Part shown: positions 4,054 to 14,182 of the stretch, in pieces
How the letters are laid out: each line of letters starts with the position of its first letter
Position numbering within the stretch: position 1 is the first letter of the stretch
Origin: Rickettsiales bacterium
GTDB taxonomy: Bacteria; Margulisbacteria; Marinamargulisbacteria; GCA-2716485; GCA-002719695
Direction: 5' to 3'
Assembly: GCA_038120575.1 (NCBI GenBank)
Contig: JAYOLY010000001.1
Coordinates: 1 to 55,008 of the forward strand
Length of the DNA stretch: 55,008 nt
Position numbers and translations under genes: made by a program
Notes under the pieces: model-generated
Database searches by the model: none
Seen by the model: the letters and a program-made list of their open reading frames with translations, nothing else
Told to the model about the DNA's origin: nothing

Positions 4054-4467
4054 ATGGTTGGGTTATCAATTAAAAGTAAGTATGGTCTAGCAGTTGTGCT
4101 AGAATTAGCTTTAGCTGACGAGAACAAGCCTATGCAAATTAAGGCATTGGCATCATCTCGATCTATTCCTAAAAAATATTTAGAACAAATTTTAATTGAT
4201 TTAAAAAAACAAGGTGTTTTAAAAAGTACTCGAGGAAGTCTTGGAGGGTACCAACTGGCTCGCTCGGTTCAGCACATCACTGTTGCTCAGATTATTCAAG
4301 CACTTGAGGGTAAAAATTCTTTATCTGAAGGATATAGTGGGGGAGATGTGCTTAAGTCTTTTTGGAAAGATGTTGAAAAAAAGTGTGAAACAATTTTTAA
4401 TGTGTCTATAGCAACATTGGTTCAGCAAAAACAACAAGCTCAACAATGTCTTGCATTTAACATTTAA
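4054..4467 (+). CDS. Rrf2-family transcriptional regulator, CymR-like (no Fe-S cysteine ligand triad)
   Basis: N-terminal SKYGLAVVLELA is followed by the winged-helix segment IPKKYLEQILIDLKKQGVLKSTRGSLGGYQLAR. Only two scattered Cys residues are present. It sits directly upstream of cysK. Confidence 0.8.
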   Translation: MVGLSIKSKYGLAVVLELALADENKPMQIKALASSRSIPKKYLEQILIDLKKQGVLKSTRGSLGGYQLARSVQHITVAQIIQALEGKNSLSEGYSGGDVLKSFWKDVEKKCETIFNVSIATLVQQKQQAQQCLAFNI

Positions 4468-4476
4468 AGGTGAAAG

Positions 4477-5421
4477 ATGTCTGAAAATAAAAAAAGAATT
4501 TTAAATAGTGTTGTAGATTTAATTGGAAATACGCCATTGATTCGTTTAAACAAACTGTCAGATCAAACTGGTGCTGAAATTTACGGGAAATGTGAGTTTT
4601 TAAATCCAAGTTCATCTGTAAAAGATCGAATTGGGCATGCAATGATAGAGGCTGCAGAAAAAAAAGGACAACTCAGTCCAGGCACTGTCATTGTAGAGCC
4701 AACAAGTGGAAATACAGGAATTGCCTTGGCGTTTGTAGGATCTGTGAAAGGATATAAAGTTGTCTTAACCATGCCAGAATCAATGACATTAGAAAGACGA
4801 AAGTTGCTCAAAGCATTTGGTGCAGAAATTGTACTAACGCCAGCTCATTTAGGCATGACAGGCGCTATTGAAAAAGCAAAAGAACTTGCCACTCAATACG
4901 AGAAAGCATTTATTCCTCAGCAATTTAATAATGACGCTAATCCGGATGTGCATTTTCGTACAACAGGGCCAGAAATTTGGGCTGATACTGCAGGAGATTT
5001 AGATTTTTTTGTGGCTGGAATTGGAACAGGTGGAACAATGGCAGGTGTAAGTCGATTTATTAAAACAAAAAGTAACACTGTTCAGTTTGTAGCTGTGGAG
5101 CCAGAAGATTCACCTGTATTGTCTGGTGGTCAAGCTGGTCCTCACATGATTCAAGGAATTGGAGCTGGCTTTGTACCTGGAAATTTAAAAGACGGAGATT
5201 TTGATCACATTATTCAGGTATCTAATGACAATGCGATGCAAACCTCTCGCCAGCTGGCTAAAGATGAAGGTCTTGTGCTTGGCATTTCAGCTGGAGCAAA
5301 TGTATTTGCTGCTGCAAGCCTTGCTTCAAAGCCAGAAAATAAAGGAAAAAAAATTGTTACAATTTTATGCGATTTTGGTGAACGTTATTTAAGTACATCA
5401 TTATTTGATCAAGAGATTTAG
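4477..5421 (+). CDS. cysK: cysteine synthase (O-acetylserine sulfhydrylase, CysK/CysM family)
   Basis: Motifs IGNTPLIRLN, the PLP-lysine motif NPSSSVKDR, TSGNTGIALA and GIGTGGT are present. Confidence 0.9.
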   Translation: MSENKKRILNSVVDLIGNTPLIRLNKLSDQTGAEIYGKCEFLNPSSSVKDRIGHAMIEAAEKKGQLSPGTVIVEPTSGNTGIALAFVGSVKGYKVVLTMPESMTLERRKLLKAFGAEIVLTPAHLGMTGAIEKAKELATQYEKAFIPQQFNNDANPDVHFRTTGPEIWADTAGDLDFFVAGIGTGGTMAGVSRFIKTKSNTVQFVAVEPEDSPVLSGGQAGPHMIQGIGAGFVPGNLKDGDFDHIIQVSNDNAMQTSRQLAKDEGLVLGISAGANVFAAASLASKPENKGKKIVTILCDFGERYLSTSLFDQEI

Positions 5422-5430
5422 GAGGAAAAA

Positions 5431-11448: not shown

Positions 11449-12375
11449 ATGACATCTTTTTCAAATGAAACAACAAAAACATTAACGCATCTCAAACAAC
11501 TGGAAGCAGATAGTATTCACATTTTTCGAGAAGTTGTAGCAGAAACAGATAATCCTGTCTTATTGTATTCCATTGGAAAAGATTCTGCCGTTTTGATGCA
11601 TCTAGCACGAAAAGCATTTTATCCTTCTGATCTGCCATTTCCTGTTATGCATGTAGATACTAATTGGAAGTTTAAAGAAATGGTAGCATTTCGAGATCAA
11701 AAAGCAAAAGAATGGAATCTAGATTTAATTGTTCATAAAAATCAAGAAGGATTAAAACAAAATATAGGCCCATTTACTCACGGATCTGCCGTTCATACAG
11801 ATATTATGAAAACACAAGCTTTAAAACAGGCATTAGATAAATACAAGTTTGATGCCGCGTTTGGAGGGGCAAGACGGGATGAAGAAAAATCTCGTGCAAA
11901 AGAACGTATATTTTCATTCAGAAGTAAACAACATCGCTGGGATCCAAAAAATCAACGTCCAGAACTATGGTCTTTATATAATACTAAAAAAAATAAAGGA
12001 GAATCTATTCGTGTTTTTCCATTATCTAATTGGACAGAACTCGATATTTGGCAGTATATCTATCTGGAAAATATTCCAATTGTACCGCTGTATTACGCAA
12101 AAAAAAGACCAGTTGTCGACCGTGATGGCGTCTTAATAATGGTTGATGATGATCGGATGCCTTTAAAAGAAGGCGAAGTTCCAGTAGAAAAATTTGTACG
12201 TTTTCGAACATTGGGATGCTACCCACTAACAGGCGCTATTGAATCAACTGCTGCAACGTTGCCAGATATTATTCAGGAAATGCTGTTAACAACAACATCT
12301 GAGCGACAAGGTCGGGTTATTGATAGCGATTCTGGAGCATCTATGGAGCAGAAAAAACAGGAGGGATATTTTTAA
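11449..12375 (+). CDS. cysD: sulfate adenylyltransferase subunit 2
   Basis: The PP-loop-like motif is [14 protein letters not shown]. The conserved C-terminus is [16 protein letters not shown]...ERQGR..D. It abuts cysH. Confidence 0.9.
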
Positions 12376-12376
12376 G

Positions 12377-14182
12377 ATGGCACATCAAGCAGATTTAATT
12401 GAAACAGATATTTTAGCTTATTTAAAATCTCAAGAACATAAAAGTTTATTACGTTTTATAACCTGTGGATCAGTAGATGACGGAAAATCAACGTTAATAG
12501 GTAGACTTCTTTACGAGTCAAAATTAATTTATGAAGACCAACTTTCAGCTCTAGAGAAAGACTCCAAAAAAGTGGGTACGCAAGGCCAAAAAATAGATTT
12601 TGCACTTCTTGTTGATGGACTAGCTGCAGAGCGAGAGCAAGGCATTACTATTGATGTTGCATACCGATACTTTTCAACAGATAAAAGAAAATTTATTGTT
12701 GCAGATACTCCTGGACATGAGCAGTATACCAGAAATATGGCAACAGGTGCCTCAACAGCAGATCTTGCCATTTTAATGATTGATGCTCGAAAAGGAGTGC
12801 TTACTCAAACAAAACGACATTCTTCAATTGTACAGATGTTAGGTGTTAAAAAAATTGTGTTAGCTGTCAATAAAATGGATTTAATGGATTATTCAAAAGA
12901 CGTCTTTGACAACATTGTAAAAGACTATACCCATTTTGCAACTAAAATCGGACTTACAGATTTAAAAGCTATCCCCGTCTCTGCACTGGAAGGAGATAAT
13001 ATCACGGCTAGTTCGGATAAAATGAGTTGGTATACAGGTGGAACGCTCATGTCTTATCTAGAGTCTGTGTCTATAAATGATTCTATTGAACAAGATACAT
13101 TTAGTATGCCAATTCAATGGGTTAATCGACCAAATCTAGATTTTCGAGGATTTTCAGGACAAATTGCAAGCGGAAAAATAGACGTTGGCGATTCTGTAAA
13201 AGTGCTGCCAGCAAATATTAAAACTAAAATTAAATCTATTGTTACATTTGATGGAGATCTACCCACAGCAATTAAAGGTGAATCTATTACGTTAACATTT
13301 GAAGATGAAATTGATGCATCTCGCGGAGATGTTTTAGTTTCAGAAGATAGTTCAACGCAAAAAGCTAGCGCATTTAAAGCAAAAATGCTTTGGATGTCTG
13401 AAGATTCTATGGTGGATGAAAAACAATATTGGGTCAAAACACGAGCAAAAATGGTAACTGGAAGTTTAAAAACCCCAGATTATAAAATTGATGTAAATAC
13501 TCTCGAAAAAAATCAATCTGGAAATCTTCAGCTCAATGAAATTGGTGTTTTAGATATTGTTCTTGATCAAGATATTGCTTACGAAAAATATCAAGATAAC
13601 AAGCATTTAGGAAGTTTTATTTTAATTGATAGGTTAACAAACAATACAGTTGCAATGGGGCTTATTCAATCGTCTATTGAAGAAACAAGTTGGGTAGATC
13701 ATTTTGTTAAGCAACGAGATAAATACTGGGTTAGAAGTTTAATCACAAATAATGAACGACATATCAAATATAATCATAAACCGTTACTCATTATTTTATC
13801 TTCAAAAAATAAATGTGACTATTCAACCTCAGCAAAACAATTAGAAAAAGAATTATTTAATTTAAATATAAGTACCTATCGATATGGATTTCAGTTTATG
13901 AGATCTGCCGTGAATGCTAATGACGGTTTTCAGCAAGCTGAAATGCGACAAGAAATGATTCAGCAACTCATGGAAATAGGTCATGCATTTTGCGATGCTG
14001 GAATGGTTTTTATTACAGCTATTCACAATATTAAAGACCATGAAATTGGACCCATTGAACAAATAATGAGTCCATTTGAGATTGTTACAATATACATTGA
14101 CGAATTATTTTTAAATCAAAATAACACGGTAGCTGAGCCTGTTTTAGAATTGATACAAAATAAAATAAAATTAAGTAGCTAA
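12377..14182 (+). CDS. cysN: sulfate adenylyltransferase subunit 1 (GTPase) with a degenerate C-terminal APS-kinase-like domain
   Basis: G1 is GSVDDGKSTLIGRLL, G3 is DTPGHEQY and G4 is NKMD. The C-terminal ~170 aa align to CysC, but the Walker A position reads LSSKNKCDYST. The start was trimmed to the ATG 1 nt after the cysD stop. Confidence 0.85.
   Translation: MAHQADLIETDILAYLKSQEHKSLLRFITCGSVDDGKSTLIGRLLYESKLIYEDQLSALEKDSKKVGTQGQKIDFALLVDGLAAEREQGITIDVAYRYFSTDKRKFIVADTPGHEQYTRNMATGASTADLAILMIDARKGVLTQTKRHSSIVQMLGVKKIVLAVNKMDLMDYSKDVFDNIVKDYTHFATKIGLTDLKAIPVSALEGDNITASSDKMSWYTGGTLMSYLESVSINDSIEQDTFSMPIQWVNRPNLDFRGFSGQIASGKIDVGDSVKVLPANIKTKIKSIVTFDGDLPTAIKGESITLTFEDEIDASRGDVLVSEDSSTQKASAFKAKMLWMSEDSMVDEKQYWVKTRAKMVTGSLKTPDYKIDVNTLEKNQSGNLQLNEIGVLDIVLDQDIAYEKYQDNKHLGSFILIDRLTNNTVAMGLIQSSIEETSWVDHFVKQRDKYWVRSLITNNERHIKYNHKPLLIILSSKNKCDYSTSAKQLEKELFNLNISTYRYGFQFMRSAVNANDGFQQAEMRQEMIQQLMEIGHAFCDAGMVFITAIHNIKDHEIGPIEQIMSPFEIVTIYIDELFLNQNNTVAEPVLELIQNKIKLSS

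Follow-up and report, generated by a model that had tools for sequence, protein, structure and literature searches.

The eleven-gene operon at positions 4054-14182 of the 55,008-nucleotide window (the whole stretch of DNA analysed, from a Marinamargulisbacteria genome) raises the question of whether sulfur from sulfate reaches homocysteine, cysteine or both by way of a protein thiocarboxylate. The operon is probably a sulfur assimilation unit like that built around HcyS in Wolinella, under the control of a CymR-type regulator, and the chemical steps proposed for it below are each assigned from homologues in Wolinella succinogenes and M. tuberculosis.

Organization and distribution of the operon

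All eleven genes (rrf2, cysK, a ThiS-like carrier gene, metY, an E1 gene, a JAMM gene, sir-tusA, a DUF2061 gene, cysH, cysD and cysN) lie on the + strand and are tightly packed, with gaps, in gene order, of 9, 9, 1, -4, 1, 2, 0, 12, 0 and 1 nt. An earlier, sequence-only reading had described this order, the close spacing and the ATGA in which the metY stop overlaps the E1 start (6895-6898), all of which hold, with measured gaps of -4 to 12 nt, as do its family assignments, which Pfam and NCBIfam models confirmed for all eleven products. GGAG/AGGAG-like sites precede most of the starts, and later ATGs are plausible starts for metY, the JAMM gene and cysN because the longest ORFs begin within the preceding gene. 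No terminator-like site was found at the internal gene boundaries of the operon, and a riboswitch search found none. A predicted sigma-70-like promoter of the operon (3996..4024, + strand; TTGACT-17-TATAGT, 10 of 12 consensus matches), assigned by consensus match alone, precedes rrf2; its -35 and -10 are kept across the aligned upstream regions of related loci.

The same eleven genes in the same order are found in at least four independent Marinamargulisbacteria genomes (L001, L004, L016, L020), so the arrangement is not due to chance, and in L002, L003, L010, L018 and L061 the order is also kept up to the limits of the contig. Many phyla have rearranged versions; at least 584 species genomes encode a member of the carrier subfamily, and the parts of the module recur among 80 loci (E1 in 78, JAMM in 71, metY in 62, TusA in 58). 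The Wolinella locus, recovered through a protein identical to PDB 3RI6 over the 393 residues queried, has the order DUF2061-cysH-cysD-cysN-HcyS-HcyF-HcyD-Sir~TusA-cysG with a divergent metY, and the window proteins have 32-62% identity to those of this locus. Judged by sequence, the operon is an orthologue set of the characterised HcyS/HcyF/HcyD/MetY/Sir system of W. succinogenes, the thiocarboxylate homocysteine pathway of which is attributed to Krishnamoorthy & Begley 2011 in passages of PMC5764234 and PMC6225789. The combined layout had been singled out as worth testing, but it is not new: in Wolinella cysH, cysD, cysN, Sir-TusA and DUF2061 already stand beside HcyS, HcyF and HcyD, so that the merger with sulfate assimilation, the TusA fusion and DUF2061 were known; the exact window order, moreover, is common to several genomes. 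As a close relative of the Wolinella system that is common in public genomes, the operon is mostly ordinary.

The predicted route from sulfate to sulfide

Sulfate would be converted to APS by CysD (11449..12375, 308 aa; NCBIfam CysD, 547 bits against a cut-off of 413), the small subunit of sulfate adenylyltransferase, together with the GTPase subunit CysN (12377..14182, 601 aa; CysN 670 bits, CysNC subfamily model 754 bits). The C-terminal APS-kinase-like domain of CysN is degenerate: the Pfam APS_kinase match is weak and covers only part of the profile (positions 4-107 of 152, E=1e-6), the sole GxxxxGK[ST] motif is in the GTPase domain, and the kinase P-loop position reads LSSKNKCDYST. This tail is probably inactive. 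CysH (10690..11448, 252 aa; PRK02090, 250 bits versus a cut-off of 154) is typed as an APS reductase because of its intact Fe-S cysteines (CC123-124 and C206-x-x-C209, CC...CEPC) and ECGIH motif, with a TIGR02055 APS_reductase score of 232.8 against a cut-off of 235.3; this Fe-S-type enzyme would reduce APS to sulfite. The small predicted membrane protein encoded in front of it (10453..10677, 74 aa; Pfam DUF2061, 65 bits) is 54% identical to the DUF2061 protein at the start of the Wolinella cluster, and DUF2061 occurs in 24 of the 80 loci, mostly immediately upstream of cysH.

Sulfite would be reduced to sulfide by Sir-TusA (8119..10452; Pfam NIR_SIR, NIR_SIR_ferr and TusA), a siroheme/[4Fe-4S] sulfite reductase of NirA type with 40% identity over its full length to Wolinella Sir-TusA. 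The reductase (residues 1 to about 535) is followed by a helical domain (about 540-690) and TusA (708-775). The middle domain had no match in Pfam, PDB sequences or Foldseek; AF2 models it as a helical bundle with pLDDT > 90. All 38 sequences compared have the cluster ligands Cys398, Cys404, Cys442 and Cys446, and likewise Cys570 in the helical domain and Cys714 in TusA; the TusA cysteine is kept in all 62 TusA domains compared. These two extra invariant cysteines of the reductase, Cys570 and Cys714, are the sole new lead from the operon.

The sulfur carrier, its E1 and its protease

The carrier (5431..5643, 70 aa; Pfam ThiS) is a ThiS-fold protein of HcyS type that ends in EFLYFMGGG-DK and has 48.5% identity to Wolinella HcyS, which ends in FLYFMGGG-A; the subfamily is marked by KMPxMVS and EFLYFMGGG, both invariant, with variable tails after the latter. 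The closest PDB match of the carrier is a Geobacter "ThiS" (2k5p, 69 bits). The E1 adenylyltransferase (6895..7689, 264 aa; Pfam ThiF, 265 bits) is of HcyF type, with 61.6% identity to Wolinella HcyF and scores of 168-184 bits against Uba4, ThiF and MoeB; it has neither a rhodanese domain nor CxxC zinc motifs, and its motifs GTGGLG, DGDVVDLSNLQRQ and PTCSQAG are intact. The JAMM/MPN+ metalloprotease (7691..8116, 141 aa; Pfam Prok-JAB, 81 bits) is of HcyD type, with 48.7% identity to Wolinella HcyD and intact E-x-C-G and HSHPESPARLSEED (E...HxHx7SxxD) motifs. Parts of the module are naturally fused in other genomes as ThiS-MetY, ThiS-E1, JAMM-Sir-TusA and ThiS-Sir-TusA. The identities of all three proteins and of the reductase to their Wolinella counterparts, the FLYFMGGG end with its removable tail (DK in the window carrier) and these fusions support the thiocarboxylate pathway that had been proposed for the trio. 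The JAMM protease would trim the C-terminal DK of the carrier, the exposed glycine end would be adenylated by the E1, and the adenylate would be converted to a thiocarboxylate with sulfur from the reductase.

A placement of the carrier and E1 in thiamin or molybdopterin biosynthesis, which would leave them merely sited beside sulfur genes, is suggested by database models and names: the carrier passes the NCBIfam ThiS equivalog model (55.7 bits versus a cut-off of 37.45), the E1 barely passes the MoeB subfamily model PRK05690 (268 versus 266), and relatives are named "thiamine biosynthesis protein ThiS" in public records. Set against the identities to HcyS and HcyF, however, E. coli ThiS matches the carrier at E=0.85 in the PDB search, and the E1 reaches about 170 bits with ThiF and MoeB. 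Furthermore, the carrier has a tail after its glycines and a dedicated JAMM protease, MetY and Sir-TusA are fused to the carrier in other genomes, and the scanned window ORFs of at least 150 aa include no thiamin or molybdopterin gene (no ThiG, ThiH, ThiO, Thi4 or MoaE; an ORF at 54-55 kb, set apart, matches only SMC_N). A thiamin or molybdopterin function is scarcely credible on this evidence: the carrier and E1 do not group with the enzymes of those pathways, a placement that the sequence-only reading had named as refuting its proposal.

MetY as the probable acceptor enzyme

MetY (5645..6898, 417 aa; Pfam Cys_Met_Meta_PP, 386 bits; TIGR01326, 410 bits, under the cut-off of 495) is a predicted O-acetylhomoserine sulfhydrylase with an intact SATKW motif. 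In the pathway proposed here, MetY would add the carrier thiocarboxylate to O-acetylhomoserine, and the JAMM protease, once an S-to-N acyl shift had taken place, would release homocysteine and recycle the carrier. Its sequence places MetY outside the Wolinella MetY clade, with 35% identity to the carrier-system MetY of Wolinella and 38% to the second Wolinella paralogue. Its PDB matches score 331 bits for T. maritima MetY, which uses bisulfide (as described in a passage of PMC8191291), and 266 bits for the carrier-dependent Wolinella MetY (3ri6). These scores count in favour of a scheme in which CysK and MetY rely on free sulfide, made by the reductase, for bulk synthesis, and the carrier, E1 and JAMM protease form an auxiliary route (a sulfide buffer, for example, or a path taken when sulfide is low or conditions are oxidative) or serve another acceptor; five loci in which carrier, E1, JAMM and TusA have no adjoining sulfhydrylase gene (L033, L037, L040, L060, L073) point the same way. 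Because the window MetY is nearer to the free-sulfide enzyme of T. maritima, its use of the carrier rests on adjacency and on the ThiS-MetY fusion of L032, in which the MetY part shares 49% identity with that of the window. Against bulk synthesis from free sulfide, metY adjoins the carrier gene more often than any other gene does (in 60 of 80 loci), is translationally coupled in the window to both flanking module genes (gaps of 1 and -4 nt), and is fused to ThiS in both MetY clades (L032 in that of the window, P0295 and P0358 in that of Wolinella). The Wolinella MetY reportedly uses the carrier. We regard the free-sulfide scheme as improbable and prefer carrier-dependent synthesis of homocysteine.

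CysK and the CymR-like Rrf2 protein

Whether the same carrier also feeds cysteine synthesis depends on CysK (4477..5421, 314 aa), for which the sequence-only reading had left the choice between CysK and CysM types. Model scores favour the former (TIGR01139 cysK, 433 bits versus a cut-off of 351) and not the latter (CysM models, 299-306 bits, under their cut-offs). Among the best 60 PDB matches listed, mycobacterial CysK1 structures (2q3b and 3rr2) rank highest, with M. tuberculosis CysK1 the best of all; E. coli CysM (2bhs, 243 bits) comes last, in 60th place, and the list does not include CysM of M. tuberculosis. The PLP lysine motif SVKDR and the asparagine loop TSGNTG are intact. By these comparisons the enzyme is a canonical CysK, not CysM-like, and most likely it would form cysteine by the usual reaction of O-acetylserine with free sulfide.

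The alternative is dual use, in which one carrier thiocarboxylate would be the sulfur donor for both CysK and MetY and neither would need free sulfide. In its favour, 21 of 80 loci, of differing overall gene order, have cysK adjoining the carrier gene (in Marinamargulisbacteria, the PVC group, Melioribacteraceae, Bacteroidaceae, Nitrospirae and others, with rrf2 or metY missing in some cases), and the full-length loci L062, L071, L045 and L049 hold carrier, E1, JAMM and cysK with no metY nearby. The active site of CysK accepts protein C-terminal tails (a passage of PMC4961446), and the CysO/CysM pair of M. tuberculosis is a precedent for cysteine synthesis from a protein thiocarboxylate (a passage of PMC6225789). 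However, the enzyme of that precedent is CysM, whereas the window enzyme is of the canonical A type that uses free sulfide, as does CysK1, its nearest solved structure among the matches listed; the known tail partners of CysK terminate in Ile, not Gly-Gly; the characterised Wolinella cluster has no cysK; and no fusion of CysK to ThiS or to any other module part was seen among the proteins listed and the loci examined, in contrast to the ThiS-MetY fusions of both clades. The co-location of cysK can be accounted for by CymR-CysK pairing or by ordinary membership of a cys regulon. We regard dual use as the less likely reading, although a more likely one than the free-sulfide scheme above, and a CymR-CysK regulatory pair is the likely reason for the position of cysK.

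The first gene encodes an Rrf2-family regulator (4054..4467, 137 aa; Pfam Rrf2, 94.5 bits) that among the specific NCBIfam models matches CymR best (87.8 bits, under a cut-off of 195). It has just two cysteines (111 and 132) and so lacks the Fe-S triad of IscR. Its C-terminus, LAFNI, belongs to a (Y/F)-x-Ile ending found in 39 of 39 cluster-linked Rrf2 proteins. A conserved C-terminal Ile is usual in partners of CysK, with which CymR forms a complex (Tanous et al. 2008, as cited in passages of PMC2869319 and PMC4961446). A CymR-box-like candidate operator (TATAGTCTACTAAAAAGATAGAGATTA; 4019..4045, + strand) overlaps the -10 and the predicted transcription start, and an ACTAAA..ATAGAGATT element is conserved at the same position in L010, L002, L006, L011, L014 and L016. 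What we take to be the B. subtilis CymR consensus is matched perfectly (19/19) at two sites in 1.2 Mb of loci, each immediately upstream of rrf2 (L014, L015), and 9 of its 20 matches with at most three mismatches are at rrf2; the window site has four mismatches and is not significant by itself. The missing Fe-S triad, the Ile tail and the CymR-box-like site together point to CymR-CysK pairing, and the rrf2-cysK pair is relocated jointly to the operon end in L025. The regulator would bind the predicted operator over the -10, with CysK probably also acting as its co-repressor partner, and keep the operon off when the cysteine supply is adequate. In some loci with cysK next to the carrier gene (L015, L021, L067, L071, L074, L079), rrf2 is not beside cysK, so the regulator cannot account for every case.

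Comparison with known systems

The window operon and the Wolinella locus are alike in clustering a ThiS-fold carrier that has a removable tail after FLYFMGGG (DK in the window, A in Wolinella), an E1 that lacks a rhodanese domain, a JAMM protease, a NirA-type reductase fused to a helical domain and TusA with both extra cysteines, DUF2061, cysH, cysD, cysN and MetY. The window differs in having rrf2 and cysK in front, in the placement of metY within the operon between the carrier and E1 genes rather than divergent, in the absence of cysG, in the degenerate APS-kinase tail of CysN (the Wolinella CysN, of 459 aa, has none), and in a MetY from another clade.

The CysO/CysM/MoeZ/Mec+ cysteine pathway of M. 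tuberculosis (Burns et al. 2005, as cited in a passage of PMC6225789) shares with the predicted pathway a ubiquitin-fold carrier thiocarboxylate, an E1, a PLP-dependent sulfhydrylase and release of the amino acid by a JAMM protease. The M. tuberculosis system is not known to include a sulfite reductase-TusA fusion. Its sulfhydrylase is CysM, which uses O-phosphoserine, and its E1, MoeZ, has a rhodanese domain and is encoded elsewhere, whereas the window PALP enzyme is CysK and the window E1 lacks that domain.

Like the CymR-CysK systems of B. subtilis and S. aureus, the window has a non-Fe-S Rrf2 gene adjoining cysK and a CymR-box-like predicted operator at the promoter. The window regulator also carries a C-terminal Ile tail of the kind found in CysK partners. 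The window differs in that its regulator matches the NCBIfam CymR model well under the cut-off and is encoded by the first gene of the operon that it presumably controls.

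Organization of the operon and its flanks

Eleven genes on the + strand (4054-14182), for which ORF calling gave the same coordinates as the sequence-only reading, are ordered rrf2, cysK, carrier (thiS-like), metY, E1, JAMM, sulfite reductase-TusA (Sir~TusA), DUF2061, cysH, cysD and cysN, with gaps in gene order of 9, 9, 1, -4, 1, 2, 0, 12, 0 and 1 nt; the negative value is an ATGA overlap of metY and E1 (6895-6898). The longest ORFs of metY, JAMM and cysN begin within the preceding gene, and ATG codons farther downstream in these ORFs (5645, 7691 and 12377, respectively) are preceded by Shine-Dalgarno-like sequences. 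Pfam and NCBIfam assign the products to the Rrf2, CysK, ThiS, MetY-type Cys_Met_Meta_PP, ThiF, Prok-JAB, NIR_SIR plus TusA, DUF2061, CysH, CysD and CysN families, and the catalytic motifs of all the enzymes are intact, which bears out the eleven-gene operon and every family call of the sequence-only reading. One promoter-like site (3996-4024) lies upstream of rrf2, and no internal gene boundary of the operon has a terminator-like site. No riboswitch was matched in Rfam, and a search of the promoter region with a 6-nt seed found no inverted repeats.

Directly 5' of the operon promoter is a gene for a large predicted lipoprotein with Big_9/cadherin-like repeats and two DUF285 repeats (2131-3981). 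The genes on the 3' side (14261-18349 and 23341-23892) encode an SDF-family transporter, a DsbD-like thiol:disulfide reductase and two AhpC/TSA-type peroxiredoxin-like proteins. The SDF transporter is conserved beside the cluster in no related locus, no conserved link of DsbD to the cluster was found, and both were excluded from the operon unit for this lack of conservation. An RNase HIII gene is located at 18346-19305 on the - strand, and the GC content is 29-37%. The closest relative, a MAG locus with an E1 of 92% identity (L010), is labelled Rickettsiales. For the reductase of the window, a protein from Ca. Marinamargulisbacteria SCGC AG-414-C22 is the best named match, with 78% identity, and the window is therefore probably from this lineage. 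The RNase HIII gene, the GC content and this match of Sir~TusA argue against the Rickettsiales label of L010.

Distribution, gene order and fusions

The eleven proteins were mapped onto 80 genome loci, each surrounding a carrier gene and many of them incomplete. The complete order of the eleven genes is found in four Marinamargulisbacteria genomes (L001, L004, L016, L020), so that the arrangement cannot be called unique, and the same order is kept up to the contig end in L002, L003, L010, L018 and L061. Two other loci (L028 4564-12542 and L031 2484-10903) have the gene order of the window with the Sir~TusA gene missing between JAMM and DUF2061. Rearranged clusters, typically rrf2-DUF2061-cysH-metY-carrier-E1-JAMM-Sir~TusA-cysK, are present in Planctomycetota, Verrucomicrobiota, Kiritimatiellia and Lentisphaeria, and rearranged clusters also occur in Spirochaetes, Bacillota, Goldbacteria, Melioribacteraceae and Campylobacterales; Desulfobacterota and SAR324 have carrier-metY-E1-JAMM-TusA without the reductase. 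Fuchsiella, Natroniella and Wolinella are examples of culturable bacteria with the cluster. Across the 80 loci, with their many incomplete members, E1 is present in 78, JAMM in 71, metY in 62, TusA in 58, Sir and cysH in 43 each, cysK in 39, rrf2 in 38, cysD in 26, DUF2061 in 24 and cysN in 22. The gene adjacent to the carrier gene is metY in 60 of the 80 loci and cysK in 21.

Several parts of the module are joined in single proteins. ThiS is fused to MetY (L032 9992-11443, and the protein records P0295 and P0358) and to E1 (L029 9842-11026), JAMM is fused to Sir-TusA (L023 12364-15030; L043 3355-5988; L062 10005-13775, an ORF that may include E1), and one protein (P0228) has a ThiS+Sir+TusA architecture. 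In-frame fusions such as these would need cleavage by JAMM to release the carrier.

The carrier, E1 and JAMM proteins

These three proteins resemble the carrier HcyS, the E1 enzyme HcyF and the JAMM protease HcyD of Wolinella succinogenes. The carrier is 48.5% identical to HcyS and ends in FLYFMGGG-DK, compared to FLYFMGGG-A in HcyS. Two motifs, KMPxMVS..NG and EFLYFMGGG, are invariant in its subfamily, and the short tails after them (for example Q, A, DK and EYGI) vary greatly; such a pattern would be expected of a glycine end that has to be uncovered by a protease. The JAMM protein matches the Prok-JAB family of Pfam, retains E26 and an intact H80-x-H-x7-S-x2-D motif, and is 48.7% identical to HcyD. 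The ATP-binding motifs of E1 are present, and this protein is far closer to HcyF (61.6% identity) than to ThiF, MoeB and Uba4 (168-184 bits). The best solved relative of the carrier is the Geobacter 'ThiS' 2k5p (69 bits); E. coli ThiS resembles the carrier only negligibly (E=0.85).

A role with ThiS/ThiF in thiamin synthesis or with MoaD/MoeB in molybdopterin synthesis was considered and rejected on account of the DK tail of the carrier, its JAMM partner and its negligible similarity to E. coli ThiS. The ORFs scanned in the window include no ThiG/ThiH or MoaE genes.

At 90% identity the carrier subfamily forms at least 1269 clusters, and at least 584 species genomes encode a member; Marinamargulisbacteria and SAR324 are among the abundant, uncultured marine lineages represented. 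Homocysteine synthesis by the Wolinella-type protein-thiocarboxylate route is thus not confined to one epsilonproteobacterium. The genes of this system in these lineages are routinely mislabelled as ThiS, MoeB or 'desampylase', and their correct annotation would alter predictions of methionine prototrophy and sulfur flow in the organisms that carry them.

MetY as the predicted user of the carrier

The metY gene begins 1 nt after the carrier gene. Its product scores higher against the bisulfide-using MetY of Thermotoga maritima (331 bits) than against that of Wolinella (266 bits); it differs from the MetY of the Wolinella HcyS system in belonging to another MetY clade (35% identity), and is slightly closer to the second paralogue of Wolinella. 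The MetY half of the ThiS-MetY fusion in L032 belongs to the same clade as MetY of the window, with 49% identity. The prediction that this MetY uses the carrier rests on the tight coupling of its gene to both neighbours, on the frequency with which metY adjoins the carrier gene (60 of 80 loci) and on the L032 fusion.

CysK, Rrf2 and regulation

CysK passes the cysK equivalog model (433 vs a cut-off of 351) and falls below the cut-offs of the CysM models (299 vs 394 and 306 vs 413), and its nearest solved structures are of mycobacterial CysK1, a sulfide-using enzyme. The operon differs in this respect from the CysO/CysM system of M. tuberculosis, because its sulfhydrylase is not of the CysM type. 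The Rrf2 protein matches the Pfam Rrf2 family, has only two cysteines (111 and 132) and lacks the three-cysteine Fe-S ligand set of IscR; its best specific model, although below the cut-off (87.8 vs 195 bits), is that of CymR (NF047409), the Rrf2-family repressor of Bacillus subtilis and Staphylococcus aureus. CymR and CysK form a repressor complex (PMC2869319), and the partners of CysK usually have a conserved C-terminal isoleucine (PMC4961446). The C-terminus of the Rrf2 protein (4450-4467) reads LAFNI, and all 39 of the cluster-linked Rrf2 proteins in 36 related loci likewise end in (Y/F)-x-Ile, even where the cluster has no cysK.

An element, ACTAAA..ATAGAGATT, is conserved between the -10 and the start of rrf2 in the window and its relatives. 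Operator scans used the B. subtilis CymR consensus. In 1.2 Mb of loci there are two perfect (19/19) matches to this consensus, both immediately 5' of rrf2 (L014, L015), and with up to three mismatches 9 of the 20 matches are at rrf2. The CymR-box-like site of the window (4019-4045) has four mismatches to this consensus; in the window alone such matches are no more frequent than by chance (13 versus 14 in shuffles). In L025, the rrf2-cysK pair has relocated together to the end of the operon. The C-terminal isoleucine tail of Rrf2 and the conserved element at rrf2 point to a candidate CymR-CysK pair. Considering also the enrichment of CymR boxes at rrf2 and the joint move in L025, the most economical reading is that cysK is present as an ordinary cysteine synthase gene whose product is also the putative partner of Rrf2.

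The sequence-only reading had proposed instead that one carrier may feed both CysK and MetY. Dual use of this kind is allowed by the loci in which cysK adjoins the carrier gene without rrf2 (L015, L021, L067, L071, L074, L079) and by some complete loci in which cysK is present and metY is absent near the module, but the canonical nature of CysK, with its sulfide-using structural relatives and failed CysM models, counts against it, no CysK fusion was seen among the fusions that link parts of the module, and pairing of CysK with a CymR-like regulator is a plausible alternative that is better supported. We consider dual use rather unlikely, and no result presented here requires it; if true, it would extend the CysO principle of M. 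tuberculosis to ordinary CysK enzymes.

Sulfate activation and the sulfite reductase-TusA protein

Like adenosine phosphosulfate (APS) reductases, CysH carries Fe-S ligands of the pattern CC...CxxC and the ECGIH motif. CysN has a C-terminal APS-kinase-like domain (13718-14179, residues 448-601; a partial Pfam profile match) without a P-loop, the corresponding position reading LSSKNKCDYST. This domain is probably a non-catalytic relic, which fits a CysH of the APS reductase type, and from the Fe-S motifs of CysH and the missing P-loop of CysN we infer a predicted route from sulfate through APS to sulfite without PAPS. The DUF2061 protein (10453-10677; L083 9558-9785 in Wolinella) is a two-helix membrane protein of ~75 aa, and its gene keeps its place directly 5' of cysH in different phyla and also in Wolinella; a literature search on DUF2061 found nothing.

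The NirA-type core of the reductase has the cluster ligands Cys398, Cys404, Cys442 and Cys446. Between this catalytic core and TusA is a middle region of ~150 aa with the invariant motifs GEC(S/G)AG, RxLL and LYxxMDxSLxF; together, the middle and TusA regions are residues 536-777 of the protein (9724-10452, + strand), and the Wolinella reductase, which has these regions as well, is at L083 2938-5232. Only the TusA part was matched by Pfam with E up to 10, by a profile search of the PDB and by Foldseek with an AF2 model. In the AF2 prediction for residues 536-777, a helical bundle with pLDDT above 90 precedes a TusA fold. All 38 of the 38 reductases compared, that of Wolinella included, have Cys570 of the middle domain, in GEC[SG]AG, and Cys714 of TusA, in the motif CPxN/T; the TusA cysteine is likewise retained without exception in 62 TusA domains, both fused and free ones. 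At E<=1e-30 the middle-plus-TusA module defines 217 clusters (50% identity), and its position is almost always C-terminal in a protein of ~770-800 aa. This conserved two-cysteine helical-plus-TusA module, shared with the characterized Wolinella enzyme, is the most interesting remainder of the analysis.

E1 has no rhodanese domain, and loci without the reductase still have a free TusA. These two features argue that TusA may donate sulfur to the complex of E1 and carrier and is not a passenger. In a Bacteroidaceae MAG (L071 9032-15184), the carrier/E1/JAMM module occurs with cysK, DsrE and TusA, neighboured by the shell gene of a type 2A (SrpI-like, cNMP-binding) encapsulin and by the gene of an encapsulated cysteine desulfurase, and without a sulfite reductase; in this variant a persulfide relay feeds the module.

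In the published work on Wolinella, the sulfur of the thiocarboxylate step is reportedly attributed to free bisulfide. A joint reading of the features of the operon, which we regard as improbable, is that free sulfide would never be released by the reductase. Nascent sulfur would be trapped by the Cys570/Cys714 pair as a TusA persulfide, for example if sulfide opened a Cys570-Cys714 disulfide; the TusA persulfide would attack the E1-bound carrier adenylate to form an acyl-disulfide, which Cys570 would resolve to yield the carrier thiocarboxylate; the relay would be redox-neutral; and the thiocarboxylate would supply MetY and, in operons like that of the window, CysK too.

Comparison with the HcyS system of Wolinella succinogenes

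Residues 37-429 of the W. succinogenes MetY structure (3RI6) were rebuilt from an alignment and used as a query; protein P0241 is identical over these residues, and its contigs carry the Wolinella locus (L083, L084). The gene order there is DUF2061-cysH-cysD-cysN-ThiS (69 aa)-ThiF-JAB-[NIR_SIR+TusA, 764 aa]-siroheme synthase, with a divergent metY. The 69-aa ThiS, with its FLYFMGGG-A end, matches 'HcyS-Ala' in the published pathway. Literature searches found nothing relevant on HcyD/HcyF or on TusA-sulfite reductase fusions. In addition to the carrier, E1, JAMM and MetY identities, those of the window and Wolinella proteins are 40% for full-length Sir~TusA, 54% for DUF2061, 41% for CysH, 36% for CysD and 32% for CysN. 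Three features named in the sequence-only reading are already found in the characterized Wolinella cluster: the joining of the module with sulfate assimilation genes, the fusion to TusA and the DUF2061 gene. Thus, judged by the gene content of the Wolinella locus and by these sequence identities, the operon of the window is a member of the characterized HcyS system, and Sir~TusA, cysH, cysD and cysN are common to both clusters.
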